A stretch of DNA of 54,258 bases from a virus. Its lineage: Duplodnaviria; Caudoviricetes. The notes beneath the pieces were generated by a model. It was not told the DNA's origin, did not search any database, and saw nothing but the letters and a program-made list of their open reading frames with translations. Numbering within the stretch: the stretch's first letter is position 1; each line of letters begins with the position of its first letter. A program made the position numbers and the translations under genes. Location: positions 1 through 54,258 of the IMG/VR virus record IMGVR_UViG_3300027963_000096; one strand, 5' to 3'. Positions 1 through 36,665 of this stretch are shown piece after piece.

Positions 1-829
1 TGTCGTTGGCCTTCTGGGCGCGGGTCTGCTCGGGCTCTTGGCCGGAGACCACGTGCGTGCCGTCCTTGTACATGCCGCTGGCCACGCGCCGGTCGTACTC
101 CCACTCGGTGATCTCATGCACCTCGGCAGCGCGCTGGGCGGTGTAGAAGTTGCTGGCCGCGAACGGCAGGATCATGCGGTCGATGGGCAGGAACTCCACG
201 CAGGGGCGCTTCTTGGTCTCGTCGTACCAGAGCTTGAGGTACTGTGAGCCTCCCAGTGGTAGCTGGGTCAGCATCTGCTCCTGCTCGTCGCGGAACTCCT
301 CGATCTGCTCGGTGATCTGCCAGTTCAGGAAGTCGCGCTTGCGCTCGGCGCGCTCTTGCTTGAGGTCGTCGACCTTGCCGATGATCTTGGTGCGCACGGG
401 GCCGTCTGGTGGGAACAGCTCTTTGATGGCGCGGCTTGCAAAGTCCACGCAGCCCTCGGCCATGACGGGGTGCACCACACGGCTTGCGCCGAGGAAGTTG
501 GCCCCACCGGGTGCGTCTTTGCCCATGCCAGTGCGCCGGATGCCCTCCTCGTACTGCTTGTCACGCTCCTCGCGGGCGTTCTTGTCCTTCTCCAGCAGGT
601 TGACGTAGCGCAGGCCAAAGTTGGTCAGGTCGTAGGTGTCAATGCTCTCGGCCAAGTTGGAATAGAAGTCAGGCGACTCTTCCGGACCGCTGGTCTCCAT
701 GCTCACCACGGCAGAGCCGTCGGGCATCTCGGTGACGTCGGAGATGTCTTCGGGCAGCTCTACATCAACGGAGCCGTCCTCGTTGGCTTCAAGGTCGTCG
801 TCGTCTTGGTTGTCGTAGGTGTCAGCCAT
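1..829 (-). CDS. Portal protein, N-terminal part (runs off the left edge)
   Basis: Not in the ORF track; translated by hand from ATG at 829 (TAATG overlap with the upstream gene): MADTYDNQDD...FYSNLAE...GASRVVHPVMAEGCVDFASRAIKELFPPDGPVRTKIIG...RKRDFLNWQITEQ...LPLGGSQYLKLWYD. Open to base 1; resembles phage portal N-termini; downstream of terL. Confidence 0.8.
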   Translation of the reverse strand, partial: MADTYDNQDDDDLEANEDGSVDVELPEDISDVTEMPDGSAVVSMETSGPEESPDFYSNLAESIDTYDLTNFGLRYVNLLEKDKNAREERDKQYEEGIRRTGMGKDAPGGANFLGASRVVHPVMAEGCVDFASRAIKELFPPDGPVRTKIIGKVDDLKQERAERKRDFLNWQITEQIEEFRDEQEQMLTQLPLGGSQYLKLWYDETKKRPCVEFLPIDRMILPFAASNFYTAQRAAEVHEITEWEYDRRVASGMYKDGTHVVSGQEPEQTRAQKAND

Positions 830-3534
830 TATTTGACTTTCTTGGTAATTAACTCGTACTGCATGACGTCCATGTTGGGCGAGATTGTAACTTTCTCTTT
901 GACTACACCGCCTGTAGCTTTATTCATGTGCGGCTCGTTGATGTCGTAAGTGCCACGGTTGCCGATAGCCGATTTAATGGCGTTGGGGTTAAAAACGCCC
1001 AAATTTTTAACTCCCATTTCCTTCATGTACATGGCATCATGCCCAAGACTCTTAGCCGCTGCCATTACATCAGGGTCTTCTATCCATGCCCAATCACCGC
1101 TTGCCAATCTATCTTTTATGTAATCAAGCGGTTTTCCGTGGTGCATAGCCCAGATGTTATCTGTCGGTTTAAGTGCTTCTGCTACTTTTGCAACGTGCGC
1201 TGGGTTTTCATAATCAAACGGGTTTTTTACTTGAACATGCACGGGATACACCGCACCGGACATTTTGTCTGCTTTTTTGTTTTCTCCCGCATACTCGTTA
1301 GCAAATTCTGTATCGGGCGTGACAAAAGACATACCTCGAATACCGGGGGTGATAGACGCAAACCCTCCGGTGTTGCGCATTTTTTCGGTGTAGTTTGGAT
1401 CAGCTTCCGGACTGGTTGCTGGGTGCCCACCCTTTACACCACGGGTGTAGTGGCGGGTGCCGTGGTACATGCGGCGTTTCTCTTTGCTGGGCTCCAAGAA
1501 TTTTGCAAGATTGGCATCACGCTCTTTCTGTGGCAGCACCTTGTAGTTCACATGCTCCTCGGCCATAAATTCTTCTGGTCCGACGGAGCCGCCTTTGGCA
1601 AAGCCAAACTTCTTGGCGTTAAACGGCTTGGCTCGGGGCAAGTCTGCCAGTCCGGCGGCCTTGTTGATCTTGGCCACCTCCTTGTCGGTCAGCACGCGGT
1701 TGACTTTCATGGACCCACCAATCAGCCAGTTGCCGGTCATGTTGGGATTGGTCTTATAGCGGTAGTGGCCGCCCACCGGCAACTGGTCGGTGATGTGCGC
1801 CTTGACGGGAATCAGCTTGCCTTGCGCGTTGGTGCCGCGCTTGGTGGCCTCGGCCTGCCAGTCCACGTCGTTGGGCATCTCGACCTCGGCCCATGCGTGG
1901 TTCTCTGGCCGCACGTCGGGTGCTGTAAGCGACGGGTCAGACTTCTCGCCGATGTGGGTGGCGATGGGTAGGTCGCCAGCGTGCCAGCCGGGACGGTAGG
2001 CAAGCGGTCCAATCTTGGACTTCACTTTGCCGTTGGCCATCTCGCCTTCCTTGGCCGCAATCCACTTGTTCATTTCCACTGGTGTGTTGGAGTCTACGAA
2101 CAGCGGGAACAGTTTGCCGGGGTGCTTGGGGTGCACCCGGAACAGCTTGTACGCCTTGGTTGTTTCACGTGGAACATCTTCCCCGACCTCGCCGCCCTCG
2201 GCATAGCGCGGGATGCCGTTCTTCAGCACGTCCTCGCGCATGCCCGGGGTGATGTCGAACGTGTGGACGGGCGTGGTATAAGTTTTTTGATTGTCCCAAT
2301 ATTGCTTCTCAAGCTGCGCTCGGTTAGGAAGATTTATAAATTCACGAAATGGATAACCCATTGCTTCCGCAATTTCTCCACCAGTAACAGGATTAGCACT
2401 TCCAGCCGTTGCAACTTGGCCTTGCTGCACCTGCACGCCGTGCTTCTTGCCGAACTTGTTCAGGAAGGCGGGCACCATCTTGTCGTAGAACCCCTTCATG
2501 CCCTCACCACCAAACTCAAGGTCTTGGTCTTTTAGCTCTCGGTATCCATGTTCATCGGGCTTTTGTTCTAATAGTTTTCGCGCCCCTTCTTTGCCAATGT
2601 ACTGAGGCAGTTGGGAATGGGGCACGTTGTGCTTCTCTACTATCTGGTTACCCTTTGGGTCAAAGGCGAACAAAATACCGCTATCAGGATCATCGTGGTG
2701 CGTCATGTGTGTAATGCGTCCGACGTGTTTACTCAGTTCATATCGCTTGGCCTGCTCCGCACCCGGGGTGATGGCGATCTGGTCGTAGCCCTTCTCAGCG
2801 GCGTGCTGGATCATGGCCTTGAGCGCCAGCTCGTGCCAGTCCTTGGCGTGGGGGCCGTAAGGGATTGCTGGCTCTTCTTCCAGCTTACTCATCTGGTCCC
2901 ATAGCGCCCTCATTTGATTTGTAATAGGCGCCAGCGCTATGTACGGTTTGGGGTCATTTTTAAGTCTAAGTTCCTCCGACTTAGCCAACCACTCATCATG
3001 AAGTTTGGCTCTCTGGGCACTAATTTCTTCTATCTGCTTTTTATTGTGGGCGTCCTCGTAGCCTTTCTCGCGGCCTTGCTGGTGCCAATCCGACTGAATC
3101 TCCTCAAGGTGCAGTATCTTCTTGCCCTCGGGGCTGATGCGGTCCTTGGCCCGGATGCTTGCGATGACGTTGGGCGTGCCGCCAAAGTGGTACTCCACGC
3201 CGGGGAAGCCCTCGCCCTCGGGCATGGGCGTGTGCAGCAGAATCTCTCGGTAGTTCTCGCCACCGGGCAGGGTGTACGTCTCGTGGTGCGTCTGCGTGCC
3301 GGTCAGCTCGCGCTGCTTGAGCGGGAACTTGTTCTTCTTGTTTTTGAGCCTCTCCATGAACGTGGCCCGCTCCATCTGGGGCAGCGCCATCAGCGTCTGC
3401 AGGTCACGGTCCTGCGCCTCCGCAGGCTTGTAGCCGGGCTTCTTGGCCAGCTCGGCCATGTACTCCGCACCCGTGCCCTTGGGGCGGGTGACCTGCTCCA
3501 TGAGCCTGTTGATGGGTGAGTACAGGCCGGTCAC
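829..3534 (-). CDS. Polyvalent multi-domain protein: EEIQSDW domain, LAYRPGWH domain and C-terminal ART-PolyVal-like ADP-ribosyltransferase
   Basis: C-terminal MYHGT...FVTPDTEFANEYA...VYPVHVQVKNP...GHDA...VFNPNAIKSAIGNRGTYD matches the ART-PolyVal pattern. Domains are separated by YAEGG, FAKGG and KATGG. Confidence 0.75.
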   Translation of the reverse strand: MTGLYSPINRLMEQVTRPKGTGAEYMAELAKKPGYKPAEAQDRDLQTLMALPQMERATFMERLKNKKNKFPLKQRELTGTQTHHETYTLPGGENYREILLHTPMPEGEGFPGVEYHFGGTPNVIASIRAKDRISPEGKKILHLEEIQSDWHQQGREKGYEDAHNKKQIEEISAQRAKLHDEWLAKSEELRLKNDPKPYIALAPITNQMRALWDQMSKLEEEPAIPYGPHAKDWHELALKAMIQHAAEKGYDQIAITPGAEQAKRYELSKHVGRITHMTHHDDPDSGILFAFDPKGNQIVEKHNVPHSQLPQYIGKEGARKLLEQKPDEHGYRELKDQDLEFGGEGMKGFYDKMVPAFLNKFGKKHGVQVQQGQVATAGSANPVTGGEIAEAMGYPFREFINLPNRAQLEKQYWDNQKTYTTPVHTFDITPGMREDVLKNGIPRYAEGGEVGEDVPRETTKAYKLFRVHPKHPGKLFPLFVDSNTPVEMNKWIAAKEGEMANGKVKSKIGPLAYRPGWHAGDLPIATHIGEKSDPSLTAPDVRPENHAWAEVEMPNDVDWQAEATKRGTNAQGKLIPVKAHITDQLPVGGHYRYKTNPNMTGNWLIGGSMKVNRVLTDKEVAKINKAAGLADLPRAKPFNAKKFGFAKGGSVGPEEFMAEEHVNYKVLPQKERDANLAKFLEPSKEKRRMYHGTRHYTRGVKGGHPATSPEADPNYTEKMRNTGGFASITPGIRGMSFVTPDTEFANEYAGENKKADKMSGAVYPVHVQVKNPFDYENPAHVAKVAEALKPTDNIWAMHHGKPLDYIKDRLASGDWAWIEDPDVMAAAKSLGHDAMYMKEMGVKNLGVFNPNAIKSAIGNRGTYDINEPHMNKATGGVVKEKVTISPNMDVMQYELITKKVK

Positions 3535-27365: not shown

Positions 27366-28358
27366 TTATGGTCCCATATACGTTTTATACGCGTCCAAGA
27401 AACTGTCCAACGGAGACTTTCCGGTAGCGGCGTCTTTAGTAAACGCACCGGCACCAAGTGCGGCAAGACCACTGATCTGAGACAGCGGCGACATATTTAT
27501 AACGCTGGTGCTTGAGGTGGGCAGCACCACGCCCGAGGTGTTCCCGAGGGTCTTGCCCAGTATGTCCAGCGGGGCGTTCAACCGGTTTGTGGCAATGGTT
27601 TGCTGGGCAGTCCCGGTCTTCAGCAGCGCATCGGTGTCCGCCAGCCCTTGCGCCTGCAACTGTTTGGCCAGCGCGGCCTGAGCCGTACCAGTATCAAGGC
27701 CCAGCTTACCCTGCGCGGTAGTGGCTCTAGTGGCTAGGTCGGCGGCCTGTATTTGGGCTGCGCGCTGGGCTTGAGCCGCCGCCAGTGCCTGAGCGTAGCC
27801 CGACTGCAGCGCCTTGCTCTGTTCCCCGAGCGCGCCGATGTTGGCGTTGGATATGCCCAAGGACAGGGCATTGGCTCCGCGTTGCGATCCAAACTGGCCG
27901 CCGCCCACCGCGCCCGCAGTAAGGCCGGGGGCCAAGTTCTGCTGGATGTTGTTTTGGTTGGCGAGCCTAATCTGGTCCACCACGTTCTGGATGTACGGGT
28001 TCATGTACCCGCCCACCAGATCGGCGGAGCTGCTTGTCCCCGCCGTGAGGTATGGGTTGGCCGCACCGACGATGTCAGTCTTTCCCGCGTTATTTACGGT
28101 GGTGTTTGCCGCTGATAGGCCGGGGATGTAGTTCCCCACGTTGCCCGCCGCGTTGGTAAAGGCTTGGGTCTGCAGCGCGTTGGGGTCATACGCCGTCTTG
28201 GCGGCGGCGGTAAGCTGGCCCGTCGTCGGGTCTACTATGTTGCTCGACGCGGCGGTGTTGGCGTTCAGCGCCTGCGTGGTGTTCGTTAGGTAGGCATTCC
28301 CTAGATCACCCGTGGGGCTGGTCGTGGCTACGTTTGACGACTGGGTAATATCAGGCAT
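27366..28358 (-). CDS. Putative DNA-transfer/pilot ejection protein
   Basis: YMNPYIQNVVD...GGGQFGSQR, Gln/Ala-rich, C-terminal hydrophobic Gly-rich helix. Confidence 0.65.
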   Translation of the reverse strand: MPDITQSSNVATTSPTGDLGNAYLTNTTQALNANTAASSNIVDPTTGQLTAAAKTAYDPNALQTQAFTNAAGNVGNYIPGLSAANTTVNNAGKTDIVGAANPYLTAGTSSSADLVGGYMNPYIQNVVDQIRLANQNNIQQNLAPGLTAGAVGGGQFGSQRGANALSLGISNANIGALGEQSKALQSGYAQALAAAQAQRAAQIQAADLATRATTAQGKLGLDTGTAQAALAKQLQAQGLADTDALLKTGTAQQTIATNRLNAPLDILGKTLGNTSGVVLPTSSTSVINMSPLSQISGLAALGAGAFTKDAATGKSPLDSFLDAYKTYMGP

Positions 28359-30537
28359 ACTTTTTCCCCTTTGAGGACTTCAGGTATTCTAGCGGGGACT
28401 TGGCATCTGGGGGCAACTTGTCAGGAGGTGCCGAGCGGGCGCGTGACCGGATGGCGTGCACCATCCTGTCAAGCTCTTGGGCCCCAGCTTTGTTGGAGCC
28501 GTTGCCCAAGGCCGATACCACATCGGCGCTGAAGACGTACTCGCCGTTGGCCAGCATGGCCGCGATGTCGTCGCTGGTGCCGTCGCCCTTGCCCTCAACG
28601 TACTTTCCACCAAGGCCCGTAAGCCCGCCCGTGCGCAGCAGCGGCGTGCCGTCGTACTGAGGGTGGGAGCGGTCCTGTGGCGTGGCCCGCGACCGGAGCA
28701 GCGACACGAGCTCGGGGATTACATTGTGGCCGCCTTTTGCGAATTCTTTCAGGTAATCACGGTCCATCTGCTGCACAGCGCGCTGCAATGGGCCACCTTT
28801 CCCCACGTCCCCCACCTTCGAGGTTGTCCCCGCAGCCGGGGTATCGTTACCTGATGAAGAATTAGCCGCCAGTAAGGCTTGCGTAAGGTCGGTGACAGAA
28901 CCCCCGCCGGAGAAGTTTGGAGAGGTGCTGTTGTATAGCTGCTGGATGGGGCGTTGCAGCAACGCGCCCGAACCCATTTGGCCAACCCGGCCCAAGGGCG
29001 AATCTATTCCGGAGCCAGAAGAATCGGTTCCATCGCCAGAAGTCTTTTTACCAAACAAGCCCGCGCCTTTATCAAACAAGCTCTTGGCCTTCTGAACGGC
29101 ATCTAGCACATCTAGCGCGGATAGGCCACTGGTAGCAGGAAGAACGCCAGCCGCTGTAGCTAAGGCATCCCCAGTTAAGACGCCATCCACAGCGCCTTGT
29201 GCGCCAGCAGACCCCGGGGACATGCCGGAGGCTACCATCTCGTTGATGGATGTTGCCGCAGGAAGAACGCCTGTAGCCGCAGCTAAATCTGTCCCGGTTA
29301 AAAGGCCGTCCACAGCACCCTGCGCGCCAGCCGACCCCGGGGACATGCCAGAGGCTACCATCTCGTTGACACTTGTATTACCCAACAAGTCAGTAGCAGC
29401 CGTGTCAAAACCGGTTGGAGCAGCTACCCCTGTGCCAACAATAGCATCAGTACCACCCAACAAGTCGGCAGCAGCCGTATCAAAGCCGGTTGGAGCAGCT
29501 ACTCCCGTAAGATCAGCGGCAACACTGGAAAGTCCTCCCGCACCACCGGTGCCCAACAAGTCGGCAGCAGCCGTGTCAAAGCCGGTTGGAGCAGCTACTC
29601 CCGTAAGATCAGCGGCAACACTGGAAAGTCCTCCCGCACCACCGGTGCCCAACAAGTCGGCAGCAGCCGTGTCAAAGCCGGTTGGAGCAGCTACCCCTGT
29701 TAAACCCGAATTAACAGCACCAGTCCCCAGCGCCTCTCCGCCACTCCCAGCAAGAGCATCAAGACCAGTAAGGGCGTCAGCACCAGCACCGGCGTCAACA
29801 AGCGCCCCAGTGCCAGCATCAACAAGCGCCCCAGTGCCAGCATCAACAAGCGCCCCAGTGCCAGCATCAACAAGGGCTCCAGTGCCAGCATCAACAAGCG
29901 CTCCAGCCCCAAGACCCGATAAGTACGCGCCAGCACCTGAACCGGCGCCTGCGGCTGCGCTTGCTCCATACCCGGCAGTACCAATCAACGACTCAAGCGC
30001 GGCAGGCGTAAGTGCTGCAGCACCCGCCCCAGCACCGGCGGCGCCAGCACCCGCAGCGCCAGCACCCGCCGTTCCAGCAGCGCCCGCTTCTAATCCCGGC
30101 AAGCCAGCATATAGCGCAGCTAATACAGCCGCCTCTTTTACCCCGGGGTTTTCAAAAAATTGAGTAGTTGATTTGGCAGGGTCCTTGACAAAATCTGTAA
30201 CGGTGTTGGCGATTGTCCCAAGGGGGTTGCCCAGAAAACTGTCTAGCCAGCCACCACCACCTTTGTTAGGGATTACCCATTGCCCTGTAAATAGTTTCTC
30301 ACCTCCGGCTGACCCCGCTTGACCTCTCGGACCTGCAAACATTGTTGGTTGAAACACGTATCCGGGGCCGGGAGGACCTTGGGCCAGCAGCGCGGCATCA
30401 TTGATCTGTGCTTCTACTTTTGGGTCTACGTAATAATACCCCCCAGAGCCGCCCATCCCCCCACCAGTCCTAGGAACATACACTGCTCCGGGTGTATTTG
30501 CAGTAATCTCTCGAAAGTACGGATTTGGACCGGGCAT
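28351..30537 (-). CDS. Gly/Ala-rich repeat virion protein with C-terminal GDGTSDDI.AML.NGEYV domain (728 aa)
   Basis: AAGGAG RBS before ATG 30537 (MPGPNPYF); tandem repeats; FSGGG, FAKGG and LRTGG motifs precede the conserved C-terminal domain. Confidence 0.7.
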   Translation of the reverse strand: MPGPNPYFREITANTPGAVYVPRTGGGMGGSGGYYYVDPKVEAQINDAALLAQGPPGPGYVFQPTMFAGPRGQAGSAGGEKLFTGQWVIPNKGGGGWLDSFLGNPLGTIANTVTDFVKDPAKSTTQFFENPGVKEAAVLAALYAGLPGLEAGAAGTAGAGAAGAGAAGAGAGAAALTPAALESLIGTAGYGASAAAGAGSGAGAYLSGLGAGALVDAGTGALVDAGTGALVDAGTGALVDAGTGALVDAGAGADALTGLDALAGSGGEALGTGAVNSGLTGVAAPTGFDTAAADLLGTGGAGGLSSVAADLTGVAAPTGFDTAAADLLGTGGAGGLSSVAADLTGVAAPTGFDTAAADLLGGTDAIVGTGVAAPTGFDTAATDLLGNTSVNEMVASGMSPGSAGAQGAVDGLLTGTDLAAATGVLPAATSINEMVASGMSPGSAGAQGAVDGVLTGDALATAAGVLPATSGLSALDVLDAVQKAKSLFDKGAGLFGKKTSGDGTDSSGSGIDSPLGRVGQMGSGALLQRPIQQLYNSTSPNFSGGGSVTDLTQALLAANSSSGNDTPAAGTTSKVGDVGKGGPLQRAVQQMDRDYLKEFAKGGHNVIPELVSLLRSRATPQDRSHPQYDGTPLLRTGGLTGLGGKYVEGKGDGTSDDIAAMLANGEYVFSADVVSALGNGSNKAGAQELDRMVHAIRSRARSAPPDKLPPDAKSPLEYLKSSKGKKYA
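29130..29905. repeat. Coding tandem repeats: 123-bp x2, 96-bp x about 2.5 plus a partial copy, 24-bp x5
   Basis: GCTACCATCTCGTTGA at 29231 and 29354; CAAGTCGGCAGCAGCCGT at 29461, 29557 and 29653; GALVDAG(T) x5 at about 29785-29905. Confidence 0.9.
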
Positions 30538-30539
30538 AT

Positions 30540-30767
30540 CTATCTCCTTAAAGCGTTGTTGAGCGCGAAGGCCCAGTCTTGCCACGTGGCAAAACCTCGG
30601 CTGTCCGGTACGCCCGGAAACCGGCCAATACCCGACAAGCCATCCGCCCAAGTTGTCCACTGGTCTTCCGCAACGGTGCCCAGTTGGTTGGCAGCAAACA
30701 GCTCGGCCATGAGCGCGCACCATGCGTCCCACGCCATGTTCCGAGGATCGTAGACCTGTGCGATCAT
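30540..30767 (-). CDS. Small Trp-rich tail-region protein (75 aa)
   Basis: ATGA overlap; DPR.M.W..W...W..W...P....F.TWQDWA. Confidence 0.7.
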   Translation of the reverse strand: MIAQVYDPRNMAWDAWCALMAELFAANQLGTVAEDQWTTWADGLSGIGRFPGVPDSRGFATWQDWAFALNNALRR

Positions 30768-33700
30768 GGGTTCCCTGTGCTCCGGCTGTCGCCAGTGGTT
30801 ACGGACAAAAGCACGCGGCCTGTCTGATAGGTGCCGCCCGCCATGTTGGACTCAAACCGCAGCCGCATCTCGCGGCGCTGCTCGCGCATGTCGATTTTAA
30901 GCGTGGTCGGGTCAAACGGGTAAGGGTCGGAGTCCACCACGGTGTCGTCGGCATAGCCCTGCCCGGTGATGGTCACCGTCATGGTGCCCGTCTGCACGAA
31001 GTCGGGCTCCACGCGCTCCAACCGGGTCCACAGGTTGTCCCCGGGCTGCTGCTGGGTGCCTACCAGCCCGCCCAAGGTGCCGATGCTGTTGGTCTCAAAA
31101 TAGCTCTGGATCGCGGTGACGTTGGTCAGGTAGATGGAGTCGTAGCCCGTCTCGTGCTGCCATAGCAAGTAGTTGTTGCCCGTGAACGTGACCGTGATTG
31201 TCCCGCTACTGGTGGCGCTGTTGGACATCGTTACGGTAGTACCCACCACATTGGTCACGGTTGTGCTTGCCGGTATGTAAGTGCCGGAGATGGACATCCC
31301 AATGATGATTCGGCTATCCGCTGCGGCAAGCGTCAGCGTGGTGGTGTTGTTTACCGTGGCGTTTACTGCGGTAAAGGTAATGCCAATCGACTCGTTGCCC
31401 GCCCAGAAGGGCTTAGGGAACACCTCCGAGAACACGCCCGCAGAGCGGCGCGCACCCAGCGCTTCACCGGCGTCGTACCACGACTTATTGCGCACGTTGT
31501 AGATGATGGCATCGGTGCACTCGGTGGCGTTGCCTTTGGGGTAGAACCACCATATCTCGCCGTACCGGCTCACCTTGCTGACCCACACCTTCTGGCGCTG
31601 GGCAATGTTGACGTTGTCAAAGAAGTAGTTCTGGTTCAGATCGTTTGGTATCTCTTGCACCACGCCGTTGTACGACAGGAAGCGGTCCACGCCGATCCAG
31701 TAGAAGATGCCGTCGTACTCGATCACGCAGCTTGACGACATGATAGAGGTCTGGCTGCTCACTAGGTCGTAGGTCCAGTAGAAGTTCTGGCCGCCCGCAG
31801 AGGATGGCTGGAAAGACACGCGCACGAGGGCGTCAACGGCCCAGAACAGCCCAGACGGCGACGTGGAGCCGCCCCGGATGGGTAGGCCCTTGACGATCTT
31901 GCCGGTGGCCACGTTGTTTGAGTTGGCGTCTGCGGACACCCAGTTGGCAAAGTCCCCCGCGCTGGAGTTCTGGATCAGGCCGTTGTCGCCATACACAAAC
32001 AGGTACGGGTGGAGCACCACACACCCTCCGGACACCGAGATGTTGTTGTCAAAGGTCAGCGTGACCGGGTTAGACACGGTGAAGGTCAGGTTGGTCGTGG
32101 TGCCGATGGCCGTCACCAGCGCCGTGCCACCCGAGGTGGCCGAAATCTGGAACGTGGTCGTGCCGTTGGTGGCGATGATGTAATAGCTTGGGGTTCCCGG
32201 GAACCCCGTTATCACCGCGCCAGACAGGGTGTAGGACAGGCCCGTGGGCGTCCCCGCCGTGGTGGTGATGGCCGGGCCTCCCAGCGTGGCGGACAGCGTA
32301 AACGTCGTTGAGCCGTCGGTGGTGGTGATGTAGTACGTGGTGGGGTTCAGGTAGCCCGTTATGGAGCCAGTGCCGCCAAAGGCGCCGCTGATCACCACGG
32401 GCTGTCCGTTCTGGAGTAGCGCGGGCGATGCGCTGCAGGAGAACTGGCCCGCCGTGCCCGTTATCGCGACCCCGCTCAACGCGGAGGGCGTGTTCAGCAA
32501 GAACGACAGCCCCGTCACCGGCCCGACCGTGTTGGTGATGGCCCCGCCCCCGCTGGTGGCGGATAGCTGGAAGTACGACGCGCCGTCCGTGGCTATTACG
32601 TAGTACACCTTGGGGCTGGTGTAGCCGGTAATGACCGTGGCTTGGGCGGTCACGGAAAGCCCCGTGGTAGGCCCAATGGTCACCGTGACCCCACTGCCTG
32701 TAGGCGTGGTGGACAACGTGAACGTGGTGCCGCCGTTGGTGGCGATGATGTAGTACGTGGCCGCAGCGACGTTGGATGCCTTGGCCGTGAAGGTCAGGCC
32801 GGTGCTCGGCCCGGCGGTCGTTGTCACCGCAGCCCCGCCAGAGGTAGTCGATAGCTGGAACGTGGACGCGCCGTTGGTGGCGATCACAAAATAGTTTGTG
32901 CCGCTGGAGTACCCCGCTATGGACAGCGCATTCGCGCTAAACGTAAACCCAGTGCCCGCGCCAATGGTGGTCGTCACCGCAGCGCCGCCCGACGTGGCGG
33001 ACAGCGTGAACGTGGAGGACCCGTTGGTGGCGATGATGTAGTAGGGCGTGGAACCGGATATGGTCAAGGCGTTTGCCGCAAAAGTCAGGCCCGTGGTCGC
33101 GCCTACCGTGCTCGTCACCGCCGCGCCTCCGGAAGTGGCCGACAGCGTCAGGGTGTTCACCCCGTTGGTGGCGATGATGTAGTACGTCGCGGCGCTGTAG
33201 CCCGTGGCCGCGCTCAGGGTGTACGTCACACCCGTCGGGGTTCCCGCCACGGTAGTTACCGCCGCGCCGCCCAAGCTGGCCGACAGCGTGAACGTGGTGC
33301 TCCCGTTGGTCGTGATGATGTAGTACGTCTTGGGGTCGGTGTACCCTGTAATGCTGCCCGTACCACCAAAAACACCGCTGATGACAACAGGCTGGCCCAC
33401 GTACAAGGTAACCGGCGAGGCCGCGCACTGGAAGGTGCCAGCCGTGCCGGTGATGACCACGCTGGATAGCGCCGTGGTGCTGGTGGTGCCCGTGGTCGTG
33501 ACGGTCTGGCCAACCTGCAAGACGGTGCTTGAGTTGCTGCACACCAAAGTTCCCGCTGCACCGGTAGAGTACACGTTACTCAACGTGGTGGCCGTGCCCG
33601 ACCCGGTCACCGATACTGTCTGGCCTACCGCAAGGGTATTGATACTTGTGCAAGAGAAAGTTCCGGCCAACCCCGTGGTGTAGACGTTGGTCAGGCTAGT

Positions 33701-34810
33701 CGACGTAGGCGTGCCGCTCACCGTGACTATCTGGCCTATGGCCAAAGGCGTGGTGCTAGTACACGTAAAGTTGGCGGTGGTATCCGTGCCGTAGACGGTG
33801 CCGAGCACGGTATCGGTAGCGGTCCCGCTGACTATTACCTGCTGCCCCACACTGAGCGGAGTGGCCGACGCCGCGCAGGAAAAGCCCCCGGCGGTGCTGA
33901 TGGCGTAGGTGCCGCTCAGGGCGGTGTTGGTCGCGGCACCGCTTATCGTGACCGGGGTACCCACCGAAAGCGCGGCCCCGCTGTAGTTAAAGCGGCCCGA
34001 AGAGTTGGTGGCGTACACGCCACTGAGCGCCGTGGGCGTGGTGGTCCCACTGATGTTGATCGTTTGACCGTTGGCCAGCCCCGTAGTGGCCGTGCAGGAG
34101 AACTGCCCAGCCGTGCCGGTAAGGTTCACGCCTGACAGCGACGCCGTCGTGGTCGCCGTAGCCGCGTTGGACAAGGTGACCGTGTTGCCCAGCACCGACG
34201 ACACCGTGGTAGAGGCGGGGATGCCGGTGCCCGTCACCGCCTGCCCCGCGCCCACGCGGACATTGGCCGCCGTCAGCACCACCGCAGCGCTGCCGTTCGT
34301 GGTGTTGGCGCTGGCGGTAAACACGCCGACTTTGGACAGGGACAGAGAGCCTGAGTTTCCCGGAAACGTCCCATACAGCACCGGAGTGGCCGTGGAAGAC
34401 GTCATGTAGGACAGGTTCTGCCCGGGGTGCGCGACTATGTTGTTGGTGTTGTTGCCCGTGGAGTCGTAGGCGATGTCAAACTGCCACAGATTGTCGACGT
34501 TTGACGTGAAGTTGTTCAGGGTGTACTTGTACGGCCCCGAGCCCACGCCGCCTGTTGGGCTGGTTATCCACTGCTCCAAGCCGCCACTGTAGCCCGACAC
34601 CACGTAGTTGTAGCCGTTAACGGTGCTCATGGCCATGCCACGGGAGATGCCCGAGGCATTCAAAAACACCGCGTCATATCCACCGATCTTACGAGGCCGA
34701 CTGCGCTGAAAACGCACCCACTTGCCGTCGGTATAACAGGGAGCGTCGAATTGCGTTCCGTCCCGCTGTATCCCCGGAGGGATTTCCATGGATATGACTT
34801 TTTGGGTCAT
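30764..34810 (-). CDS. Tail nozzle / DNA-stabilisation protein (P22 gp10-like position) with a large nested beta-repeat insertion
   Basis: N-terminal PPGIQRDGT...WVRF..RPRKIGG; C-terminal propeller-like YWIGVDRFLSYNG...GEIWWFYP...IYN...WY...LWQHETG; 691-aa Thr/Gly-rich insert. Confidence 0.75.
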   Translation of the reverse strand: MTQKVISMEIPPGIQRDGTQFDAPCYTDGKWVRFQRSRPRKIGGYDAVFLNASGISRGMAMSTVNGYNYVVSGYSGGLEQWITSPTGGVGSGPYKYTLNNFTSNVDNLWQFDIAYDSTGNNTNNIVAHPGQNLSYMTSSTATPVLYGTFPGNSGSLSLSKVGVFTASANTTNGSAAVVLTAANVRVGAGQAVTGTGIPASTTVSSVLGNTVTLSNAATATTTASLSGVNLTGTAGQFSCTATTGLANGQTINISGTTTPTALSGVYATNSSGRFNYSGAALSVGTPVTISGAATNTALSGTYAISTAGGFSCAASATPLSVGQQVIVSGTATDTVLGTVYGTDTTANFTCTSTTPLAIGQIVTVSGTPTSTSLTNVYTTGLAGTFSCTSINTLAVGQTVSVTGSGTATTLSNVYSTGAAGTLVCSNSSTVLQVGQTVTTTGTTSTTALSSVVITGTAGTFQCAASPVTLYVGQPVVISGVFGGTGSITGYTDPKTYYIITTNGSTTFTLSASLGGAAVTTVAGTPTGVTYTLSAATGYSAATYYIIATNGVNTLTLSATSGGAAVTSTVGATTGLTFAANALTISGSTPYYIIATNGSSTFTLSATSGGAAVTTTIGAGTGFTFSANALSIAGYSSGTNYFVIATNGASTFQLSTTSGGAAVTTTAGPSTGLTFTAKASNVAAATYYIIATNGGTTFTLSTTPTGSGVTVTIGPTTGLSVTAQATVITGYTSPKVYYVIATDGASYFQLSATSGGGAITNTVGPVTGLSFLLNTPSALSGVAITGTAGQFSCSASPALLQNGQPVVISGAFGGTGSITGYLNPTTYYITTTDGSTTFTLSATLGGPAITTTAGTPTGLSYTLSGAVITGFPGTPSYYIIATNGTTTFQISATSGGTALVTAIGTTTNLTFTVSNPVTLTFDNNISVSGGCVVLHPYLFVYGDNGLIQNSSAGDFANWVSADANSNNVATGKIVKGLPIRGGSTSPSGLFWAVDALVRVSFQPSSAGGQNFYWTYDLVSSQTSIMSSSCVIEYDGIFYWIGVDRFLSYNGVVQEIPNDLNQNYFFDNVNIAQRQKVWVSKVSRYGEIWWFYPKGNATECTDAIIYNVRNKSWYDAGEALGARRSAGVFSEVFPKPFWAGNESIGITFTAVNATVNNTTTLTLAAADSRIIIGMSISGTYIPASTTVTNVVGTTVTMSNSATSSGTITVTFTGNNYLLWQHETGYDSIYLTNVTAIQSYFETNSIGTLGGLVGTQQQPGDNLWTRLERVEPDFVQTGTMTVTITGQGYADDTVVDSDPYPFDPTTLKIDMREQRREMRLRFESNMAGGTYQTGRVLLSVTTGDSRSTGNP

Positions 34811-36023: not shown

Positions 36024-36665
36024 TTAGGAGTCCTGTGCGATGGCTTGGCGGTCGCCAATACGGAGCTGGTCCTCGGCCTTCAACGCGGCCATGGCGGCGT
36101 CAAACAGGCCGCTCCAGACCTGTAGGCGGGCGTCGTCCTTCAAGAACGGCGCGGTCTGCTTCAGCGTGCCGTACAGCATGGCGTTGGGCGCGTTCTGGGT
36201 AAGCCAGTTGGTCTGGTTGTCGGATGCCAGCGGCTGCAACCGGGTGTAGCAGAGCGTCTCGAACGCAAAGTTGCTGCTGGGCGTGGGCGCCACGAACCAG
36301 TGGTCGGCGTCGTAGTCGGCGTAGTAGAGCGGCGTGCCGGTGGCGGTGACGTCGGGGGCGTAGTTGTTCAGGTACTCCAGCTTGCGTAGGAGGATGGGCT
36401 GCTTCTGGCCAGCCGTGGTGGTCAGGGTCATTGACACTGTCTTGCGCCAGCGCGCGGGCTTGGCTATCACCGGGTTATTGATGTTCATGTTGCCGTCGGC
36501 CACGAGCATCTGCCCAAGGGTCTTGATGTTCTCCGCGATCTCAAACTCGGCCAGCATGATGGCCATGGGAATGAAATTAACCACCGCAGCGTCAGTACGC
36601 TCCAGATACTGGAGTACCGTGGAGGTAAGGTTGTCGTAAGTAAGGACGGCGGCGGGTGTAGTCAT
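36024..36665 (-). CDS. Head-tail adaptor / tail tubular protein A-like
   Basis: TY..L...V..YLER.D...IP..I.LAE; G.P.YYA; APTP; TNWL..NAP...LYG.L...PFLKDD.R...W. Confidence 0.75.
   Translation of the reverse strand: MTTPAAVLTYDNLTSTVLQYLERTDAAVVNFIPMAIMLAEFEIAENIKTLGQMLVADGNMNINNPVIAKPARWRKTVSMTLTTTAGQKQPILLRKLEYLNNYAPDVTATGTPLYYADYDADHWFVAPTPSSNFAFETLCYTRLQPLASDNQTNWLTQNAPNAMLYGTLKQTAPFLKDDARLQVWSGLFDAAMAALKAEDQLRIGDRQAIAQDS

Follow-up and report, generated by a model that had tools for sequence, protein, structure and literature searches.

Domain insertion is common in proteins, while deep nesting of a domain within copies of itself is rare. The closest described case is Si3 of cyanobacterial RNA polymerase, where HABAS/sandwich-barrel hybrid motif domains were inserted recursively, with nine added domains (PMC11515920). 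A survey from 2026, which covers 2.7 million classified domains, describes eight domains nested recursively over six levels in the cyanobacterial enzyme and gives this nesting as its example of such complexity (PMC13114784). Here we describe an array of related design in a phage tail protein. It is encoded in the IMG/VR virus record IMGVR_UViG_3300027963_000096 (Duplodnaviria; Caudoviricetes), whose entire 54,258 nucleotides are called the window below. Positions 32069 to 34141 on the minus strand code for residues 224–914 (691 residues) of a nozzle-like tail protein, P0001, and in this segment a beta-barrel of about 85 residues, composed of an A half and a B half, is very probably nested within itself to a depth of seven levels.

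The array resembles Si3 in that a small beta domain is inserted in its own copies, the hosts are discontinuous and the whole array occupies a loop of a larger protein. It differs in its unit, a predicted FCCH-like barrel lacking a Pfam model, and in its host, a phage tail protein and not a polymerase. Moreover, the sequence of P0001 can be parsed into seven levels of one and the same domain plus one level for the outer domain D1 that holds the array, and in homologues the depth ranges from 2 to 7–8 levels with balance kept. Chains of the HABAS/sandwich-barrel hybrid motif do not occur among the best 50 matches of our fold search, a direct comparison not being part of the analysis.

Two phage systems are instructive for the fold of the unit and for its host. 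FCCH domains face outwards on siphophage tail tubes (PMC13576161); as far as the available part of that report goes, these are single terminal copies and not nested arrays. The FCCH domain of E1 (PF16190) is a small closed beta-barrel with six strands and about 80 residues; the unit described here is predicted to be a small closed barrel of similar length, and E1_FCCH is its nearest named Atlas cluster (at 0.89, to be regarded as no more than a lead). No Pfam family, PF16190 included, was matched at E≤10 by either intact unit of P0001 or by three small single-unit homologues. In phage SU10, the hexameric nozzle protein accommodates a chain of four immunoglobulin-like (Ig-like) domains between blades 2 and 3 of its propeller (PMC9509320). 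P0001 is thus similar to nozzles of the SU10 gp17/T7 gp12 type insofar as the SU10 propeller, too, carries an inserted chain of small domains. By contrast, the SU10 domains are described as Ig-like, and relatives of P0001 with 510 to 672 residues are devoid of the array. In the open-access literature searched, no description of nested or recursive insertion arrays in phage tail proteins was found.

Organization of the array and its insertion site

The array consists of two kinds of half-units, which were delimited by pattern searches and alignments and then used to build profile hidden Markov models (HMMs). The A unit has about 37 residues and the motif L.gV..tG.aG.F.C....L.vGQ.V.vsG; the B unit has 47–53 residues and the motif itGY..p.tYYIiATNG..TFtLSaTsGG.A.tT..G..TGLtF. 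Both halves open with a similar ..ITG.. strand. The profiles recover exactly eight A and eight B in P0001, with independent E-values (i-E) per unit of 8e-14 to 3e-25, and have no match in the remaining reading frames of the window. Since one A profile and one B profile match all 16 half-units, host and guest are of one domain type. Along the chain, seven A are followed by six B, one A and two B, which makes a balanced-parenthesis word. Contiguous A-B units, joined by a FGGTGSITGY linker, are found only at A7 plus the following B (447–530) and A8 plus its B (777–863); with just two of eight units contiguous, the array is not of the head-to-tail tandem type. An identity of 72% at the protein level and of 66% at the DNA level indicates that the two intact units are not a recent duplicate. 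In its composition the insert is peculiar, as its 691 residues include a total of nine Asp, Glu, Lys or Arg residues and 23% Thr. Seven of the eight A units carry one Cys each, in the F.C motif, and the B units carry none.

If the word is read as nested parentheses, level 1 would be formed by A1 and the last B, and its two halves would flank level 2 (A2 to the sixth B) as well as a complete A8-B unit, the side branch. Within level 2 would lie level 3 and so forth, down to the intact A7-B unit at the tip (Table 1).

The array itself interrupts another small domain, D1. In a three-way alignment the homologue P0002 reads continuously TVTLSNNATASGTVTLTFDNN, whereas P0001 has TVTLSNAATATTTAS, then the 691 residues of the array, and then NPVTLTFDNN; the homologue of Caulobacter phage GB2A lacks D1 altogether. 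Because P0002 is uninterrupted and the GB2A protein is without D1, we take the array to be an insertion before the last D1 strand and D1 to be an insertion in the nozzle core. A BLOSUM62 self dot-plot, which an earlier note on this DNA had suggested, displays the A and B families as separate blocks and reveals a third similarity between residues ~186–222 and 1158–1200, the latter belonging to a second, uninterrupted D-type domain, D2. D2 is present in five of 21 orthologues and missing from the other 16, from P0002 and from the GB2A homologue; judged by this distribution, it is another lineage-specific insertion in the core. Several claims of the earlier note hold in the light of these results: eight A and eight B, arranged as A7 B6 A B B and including no more than two whole units, as established by patterns, alignments and profile HMMs; a block that interrupts an outer beta domain at its last strand, with which predicted contacts between the two parts of D1 also agree; and an uninterrupted later copy of that domain.

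Table 1. Position of the host gene, the adaptor gene, the half-units and the outer domains in the window.
Feature	Residues	Position	Strand	Evidence
Host gene, nozzle-like tail protein P0001	1–1348	30764..34810	-	Open reading frame list and translation
Adaptor gene, upstream of host gene		36024..36665	-	Pfam PF24175 SU10_adaptor, E 2.4e-20; PHROG 2941
D1n, N-terminal part of outer small domain D1, ending TVTLSNAATATTTAS	160–223	34142..34333	-	Aligns to P0002 domain
A1, first half of level 1	224–260	34031..34141	-	HMM 9.4e-17; predicted contacts with last B
A2, level 2	261–297	33920..34030	-	HMM match; predicted partner sixth B
A3, level 3	298–334	33809..33919	-	HMM match; putative partner fifth B, from parenthesis parse only
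A4, level 4	335–371	33698..33808	-	HMM match; putative partner fourth B; gap 353–388 in six-deep orthologues
A5, level 5	372–408	33587..33697	-	HMM match; putative partner third B; shares gap 353–388
A6, level 6	409–446	33473..33586	-	AlphaFold2 block pLDDT 85–95; predicted partner second B
A7 and first B, level 7, tip	447–483 and 484–530	33221..33472	-	Contiguous A-linker-B; barrel at model residues 37..127, best Z 6.8
Second B, closes level 6 (predicted)	531–577	33080..33220	-	HMM 5.5e-21; model block pLDDT 89–96
Third B, putatively closes level 5	578–627	32930..33079	-	HMM match; gap 617–666 in six-deep orthologues
Fourth B, putatively closes level 4	628–673	32792..32929	-	HMM match; gap 617–666
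Fifth B, putatively closes level 3	674–723	32642..32791	-	HMM match
Sixth B, closes level 2 (predicted)	724–776	32483..32641	-	724–775 in predicted interface with A2
A8 and seventh B, side branch in level 1 loop	777–813 and 814–863	32222..32482	-	Contiguous unit
Eighth (last) B, closes level 1 (predicted)	864–914	32069..32221	-	Predicted contacts with A1
D1c, displaced last D1 strand NPVTLTF	915–921	32048..32068	-	Aligns to VTLTF of uninterrupted homologue P0002
D2, second uninterrupted D-type small domain	1142–1208	31187..31387	-	Dot-plot similarity to D1

Balance of the two halves among homologues

If A and B are halves of one domain, their numbers should match in homologous arrays. Homologues were collected by a search of the full library with the insert (347 proteins at E≤1e-3, of which the best 150 were used) and by a word-index search (best 120 of 523, 111 of them new). 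Units were counted with iterated A and B profiles at i-E≤0.01, overlaps being settled by score, and a stretch of more than 25 residues without a detected unit was regarded as a gap in a nest. Among the matches listed, 262 proteins have at least one unit. Almost half of them (125/262) are flat (AB)n arrays. Another 92 are nested, free of gaps and balanced-parenthesis words, with 15 architectures and depths from 2 to 7; 10 are nested and balanced but contain a gap of this kind. The most frequent of the gap-free nested architectures is A5B5 (32 of the 92 proteins), followed by A7B6ABB, the order present in P0001 (14), A3B3 (10), A6B5ABB and A4B4 (7 each), AABB and AABABB (4 each) and AABAABBB and AABBAB (3 each). 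Six further ones, AAABABBB among them, are represented by one or two proteins each. Thirty-five strings are unbalanced; in 29 of them an open nest contains such a gap, and in the other six it does not.

The earlier note had held that unequal counts of A and B in homologues would speak against nesting. No inequality is seen in the 92 gap-free nested arrays, and of the six gap-free exceptions all but P0120 are accounted for. P0039 is a fragment cut at the N-terminus, P0131 has a 17-residue partial duplicate of a B, and P0108 and P0244 each show a weak, distant B-like match. In P0051 a B is split, before its last two strands, by a whole A-B unit (residues 1386–1562). Inspection of arrays with gaps was likewise informative. 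In P0005, a protein which the first-pass profile scored as balanced, the gap is occupied by an A with a D-like domain inserted in it, and the gaps of P0022 and P0025 contain a divergent B. In P0027, a canonical A is followed by a 71-residue gap with two divergent A-like stretches (read by eye), then by two divergent B and finally by a canonical B; this order of co-divergence fits nested but not parallel pairing. The gaps of P0010 (1690–2205) and P0034 (176–582, 774–900) are filled by a third related type of small domain, which combines an A-like part (..VGTP.TISG..) with a B-like part (..GQ.YY.G...L...AI...L.I...GATFT). Taken together, most of the 35 non-balanced strings can be put down to gaps in detection or to fragmentary proteins.

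Nested arrays occur in more than one protein family. Clustering by flanking sequence sorted 128 nested proteins into 15 groups, comprising 68 nozzle-like proteins, 42 proteins of a second family, four tail sheath proteins and 12 smaller groups. The sheath proteins (P0011, P0206, P0233 and P0247; ~1440 residues, C-terminal PF17482) carry a four-deep A4B4 nest, which indicates that contractile tails are decorated by the array as well. Within the nozzle family, 72 core-positive proteins display depths of 3, 4, 5, 6 and 7. Each source name seen for a homologue reads 'hypothetical protein'.

Closer to P0001, 21 orthologues with 61–93% identity could be aligned to it. Seven of them, which have a six-deep nest, lack both residues 353–388 (one A period, in A4/A5) and residues 617–666 (one B period, in the third/fourth B). 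As the fourth and the third B are, by the parse, the respective partners of A4 and A5, the two gaps lie at equal depth. They probably go back to a single event, as judged from the alignment; a depth match by chance would be expected in about one in six cases, and the observation is therefore supportive but not decisive. Whole units are also accommodated elsewhere. P0170 has an 88-residue unit inside A1 (at query residue 241), and in P0027 (residues 142–325) a whole A-B unit lies within an A, after the F.C strand. These two cases, together with the split B of P0051, identify the A|B junction as the usual but not the sole permissive site.

Predicted folds and competing readings

The tip of the array was modelled with AlphaFold2 as a single chain comprising A6-A7-B-B (residues 409–580) on the basis of 14 aligned A-A-B-B cores. 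The model has a mean predicted local distance difference test score (pLDDT) of 93.7 and a predicted template modelling score of 0.82; the outer A6 and the outer B are predicted with pLDDT values of 85–95 and 89–96, respectively. It was compared with 48,161 solved chains using VIA-align, and the best 50 matches were evaluated. Most of these align the intact inner unit (model residues 37..127) to small closed beta-barrels, among them the phage head-to-tail protein 9jlf_E (Z 6.8, root-mean-square deviation (rmsd) 2.6, 76 aligned residues), the phage tail tube protein 9n71_B (Z 6.3), the E1 N-terminal fragment 4p22_B (Z 6.0, rmsd 3.0, 77 aligned), domain 2 of EF-Tu (4iw3_B, Z 5.9) and mouse E1 FCCH (2v31, Z 4.8). 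Four matches (7anu_B, 3okx_B, 3wy9_A and 4tko_B) span model residues 1..172 or 3..172 with only 63–71 residues aligned, as is expected of a barrel assembled from two outer segments, i.e., A6 and the second B; the 3wy9_A match is to domain 2 of aEF1A (residues 222–310). With Z below 8 throughout, and EF-Tu domain 2 and flavin adenine dinucleotide-binding barrels scoring alike, the general fold alone is shared with solved barrels. Foldseek retrieved no entry at E≤0.001 for the tip model from the Protein Data Bank (PDB); a Foldseek search of predicted viral structures gave matches (best E 7.6e-16) to uncharacterised proteins from uncultured phages.

The base of the array was folded as two separate chains, of which chain 1 comprised the start of D1, A1 and A2 (residues 160–297) and chain 2 the sixth B, A8-B, the last B and the D1 strand (residues 724–922), using a 22-row alignment. 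The interaction prediction score from aligned errors (ipSAE) was 0.71 (0.70, 0.71 and 0.74 in individual runs) as compared with 0.00 for the best control. Of 80 solved complexes 58 attain this mark, as do 2 of 110 mismatched pairs, counts that are only rough when a custom alignment is used. The pLDDT of the partners is 91 or higher, and 97% or more of the contacts are shared between runs. All of the 25 lowest-error pairs listed fall in A1–last B, D1n–D1c and A2–sixth B. Specifically, residues 225, 236, 237, 247–249, 252 and 253 of A1 are predicted to contact residues 878, 886–888, 910 and 911 of the last B, and residues 164–168, 192 and 193 of D1 to contact 916–920, with 162–197 forming an interface with 915–922. 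Likewise, A2 residue 288 is predicted to contact residue 735 of the sixth B in an interface of 265–294 with 724–775. Of the side-branch unit, just residues 798 and 800 touch chain 1. Sequence searches of the PDB, with a single sequence and with a profile of the 14 cores, returned no solved structure resembling the unit beyond the nozzle core and chance matches (best unit-profile match Ika8, E 0.0049, among the latter). Given that no similar solved complex is recognizable by sequence, it is unlikely that the base-fold result stems from model memory.

Based on these models, separated halves are predicted to meet around their guest in three instances, namely A1–last B, A2–sixth B and, around the A7-B tip, A6–second B. 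At levels 3–5 the pairing would follow from the parenthesis parse. The chain would leave D1, lay down the first halves of seven barrels, complete the seventh barrel at the tip and complete barrels six to two on its return path; it would then add one whole side-branch barrel, complete barrel one and supply the last strand of D1. The predicted contact of residue 225 with residue 910 suggests that the first and the last strand of a barrel are neighbours, which would make the unit insertable and keep both nest ends in the base domain. With both ends placed there, a long multi-domain projection would fit a surface loop, and an eight-unit tandem array could not close a loop in that way. The projection would presumably be rod-like and roughly seven barrels long and, by analogy with hexameric nozzles, six of them may be present per virion. 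We favour a role as an outward decoration that would contact the host surface.

Several observations weigh against a nested topology or restrict its support. All structural support consists of predictions, and the AlphaFold2 model of the whole insert (residues 160–930, 8-row alignment), with a mean pLDDT of 33.6, was unusable and leaves levels 3–5 and the overall shape without a model. Thus, the anti-diagonal contact map that the earlier note had anticipated emerged at the tip and at the base of the array but not over its entire length. Non-balanced strings make up 35 of the 262 tallied, and only those of P0005, P0022, P0027, P0039, P0051 and P0131 were accounted for by eye; the strings of P0010, P0034 and P0120 are without explanation. 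P0120 (477 residues) has three B and no A after 203 unrelated N-terminal residues and may be either a chimeric assembly or a genuine exception to the balance rule. Many of the tallied proteins are closely related, so that the number of independent events is far below 92. In P0001, a Mantel test of A-A identity against that of the partner B-B was not significant: r was 0.28, a value attained in 3716 of 40320 permutations, and for split units only it was -0.19 (526 of 720 permutations as high). A mutual-information coupling score, which was trained on 320 intact units and in which the top couplings are partly linker columns, yielded a mean z of only 0.22 for nested partners when tested on split pairs in 86 proteins, with z>0 in 62% of the proteins. 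Mild support came from a correlation of residual identities in the 21 orthologues (685 of 40320 permutations as high, uncorrected for phylogeny), where A6–second B is the strongest cell (0.84) and A4–fourth B is at -0.52.

These tests bear on how the array arose. The earlier note had deduced repeated insertion of a domain into the same loop of its predecessor; the nested topology it implied is supported, while whole-unit copying finds no significant support in the unit-similarity tests. It may equally well be that an A and a B were duplicated stepwise and that balance was regained under selection, and the similar ..ITG.. start of both halves could seed unequal exchange. In the orthologues, conservation of the array is among the highest in its tip and side-branch units, with identities of 0.76–0.85 (0.81/0.85 for A7 and the first B) as compared with 0.58–0.75 for the remaining units.

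It is conceivable that the A run forms one body (a solenoid or a stack of sheets) and the B run another, equal counts being a coincidence or the result of shared history. Such a model takes up the fact that A units, and likewise B units, lie in tandem along the chain, that neither within-protein similarity nor coupling tests uncovered partner-specific relatedness, and that the whole-insert model is uninformative. We nevertheless regard it as highly improbable and largely refuted already, because balance holds for each of the 92 gap-free nested arrays, which represent 15 architectures and more than one host family, orthologues lose an A jointly with its nesting-partner B, A1–last B and A2–sixth B contacts are predicted where controls score zero, and the outer A6 and second B are folded with confidence and align to a barrel. 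In addition, insertion in a loop of D1 requires ends that are close together. Pairing might instead take place between chains, the A run of one nozzle subunit joining the B run of its neighbour and thereby cross-linking the ring. Here, the two-chain fold predicts that the halves complement each other in trans, and some recursively inserted Si3 domains exchange secondary-structure elements according to PMC11515920. By contrast, the intact A7-B tip and the linkers of 0–6 residues between successive A's and B's (in the listed cores) favour closure within the chain, the single-chain A6-A7-B-B model closes internally with high confidence, and nested arrays also reside in unrelated hosts, such as sheath proteins, with a different neighbour geometry. 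A swap of this kind is therefore very unlikely, though slightly less so than two separate bodies.

The nested topology is also compatible with another role, in which the array, instead of being a passive adhesin or spacer, would be an arm that is initially folded back and, once the host is contacted, straightens and lengthens the tail channel. This idea draws on SU10, in which the four Ig-like domains inserted in the nozzle protein rearrange and the tail grows by 28 nm (PMC9509320), and on the adjacent SU10-type adaptor gene. However, the close relatives P0002 and GB2A lack the array (and, in the case of GB2A, D1 too), a depth varying from 3 to 7 within one family is more readily expected of a decoration than of a part of the channel, and the nested unit also decorates sheath and further proteins. 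We consider an arm of this type rather unlikely and retain the outward decoration as the favoured role of the nested array.

Genomic setting and biological meaning

The assignment of P0001 as a nozzle relies on a weak, partial phmmer match of residues 1006–1111 only to the solved nozzle gp16 (PDB 8zkk_O, E 3.9e-4), on a match to PHROG 3287 (virion structural protein, E 5.7e-21) and on the SU10-type adaptor gene nearby. A single gene for a 403-residue protein separates the P0001 gene from the adaptor gene, and MW202545 shows the identical order. By sequence, P0001 thus fits a nozzle-type tail protein of a short-tailed phage, in line with the label it had been given earlier. The gene content of the window is that of a phage (family A DNA polymerase, helicases, DUF2800 nuclease, endolysin and tail spike-like proteins); a search for terminal repeats of the window found none. 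When full-length P0001 was compared with 50,697 phage records by tblastn, nine records matched, each covering at most 44% of the protein and none covering the array insert. The best of them, MW202545, encodes the 672-residue homologue P0002, which is ~62% identical over the matched parts; the homologue of GB2A has 510 residues. Among cultured phages, those of Caulobacter come closest to the core of P0001, and no isolated phage bearing the array was found in these records. The insert alone had no tblastn match at E≤1e-3 in the same records, although the low-complexity filter may have masked this query with 23% Thr.

Some further observations concern the host protein and its surroundings. Residue 99 of P0001 (~34514, minus strand) marks a third insertion hot spot, where P0163, P0164 and P0170–P0172 have 84–92 extra residues and P0002 has a different domain. 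Just downstream of the P0001 gene, an open reading frame at 28351..30732 (minus strand) encodes an Ala/Gly-rich protein of 793 residues, starting with GTG, with five copies of GTGALVDA, three of a ~32-residue repeat and two of a ~45-residue repeat. Near its C-terminus this protein has only weak matches to tape-measure PHROGs; it may take part in ejection or reside inside the virion. The 901-residue product of the open reading frame at 829..3534 (minus strand) ends in an ART-PolyVal ADP-ribosyltransferase domain (PF18760, E 1.3e-10), as is the case in phage polyvalent proteins.

Recursive self-insertion as such is already known from Si3. New in the present case are the domain family, the setting in a phage tail, a depth beyond the cited six-level case and the natural series of depths. 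On balance, we lean towards the view that the unit represents an undescribed insertable barrel domain which, when located in loops, usually multiplies by recursion, up to seven or eight levels, and so provides nozzle, sheath and further virion proteins with projections of tunable length. It would constitute a phage decoration domain that has escaped annotation, lacks a Pfam model and has matches in hundreds of tail proteins from metagenomes. The topology of its fold would impose a grammar on repeat evolution, in that an A is gained or lost only together with its partner B and the two halves are almost always equal in number. It would also illustrate a design principle by which an assembly can bear long rigid projections in its surface loops, in which a tandem array is unable to close. 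If this is true, the natural variants with 2 to 8 levels form a length series in which the folding of nests, the order in which discontinuous domains fold and evolution under a balanced-parenthesis rule may be studied.

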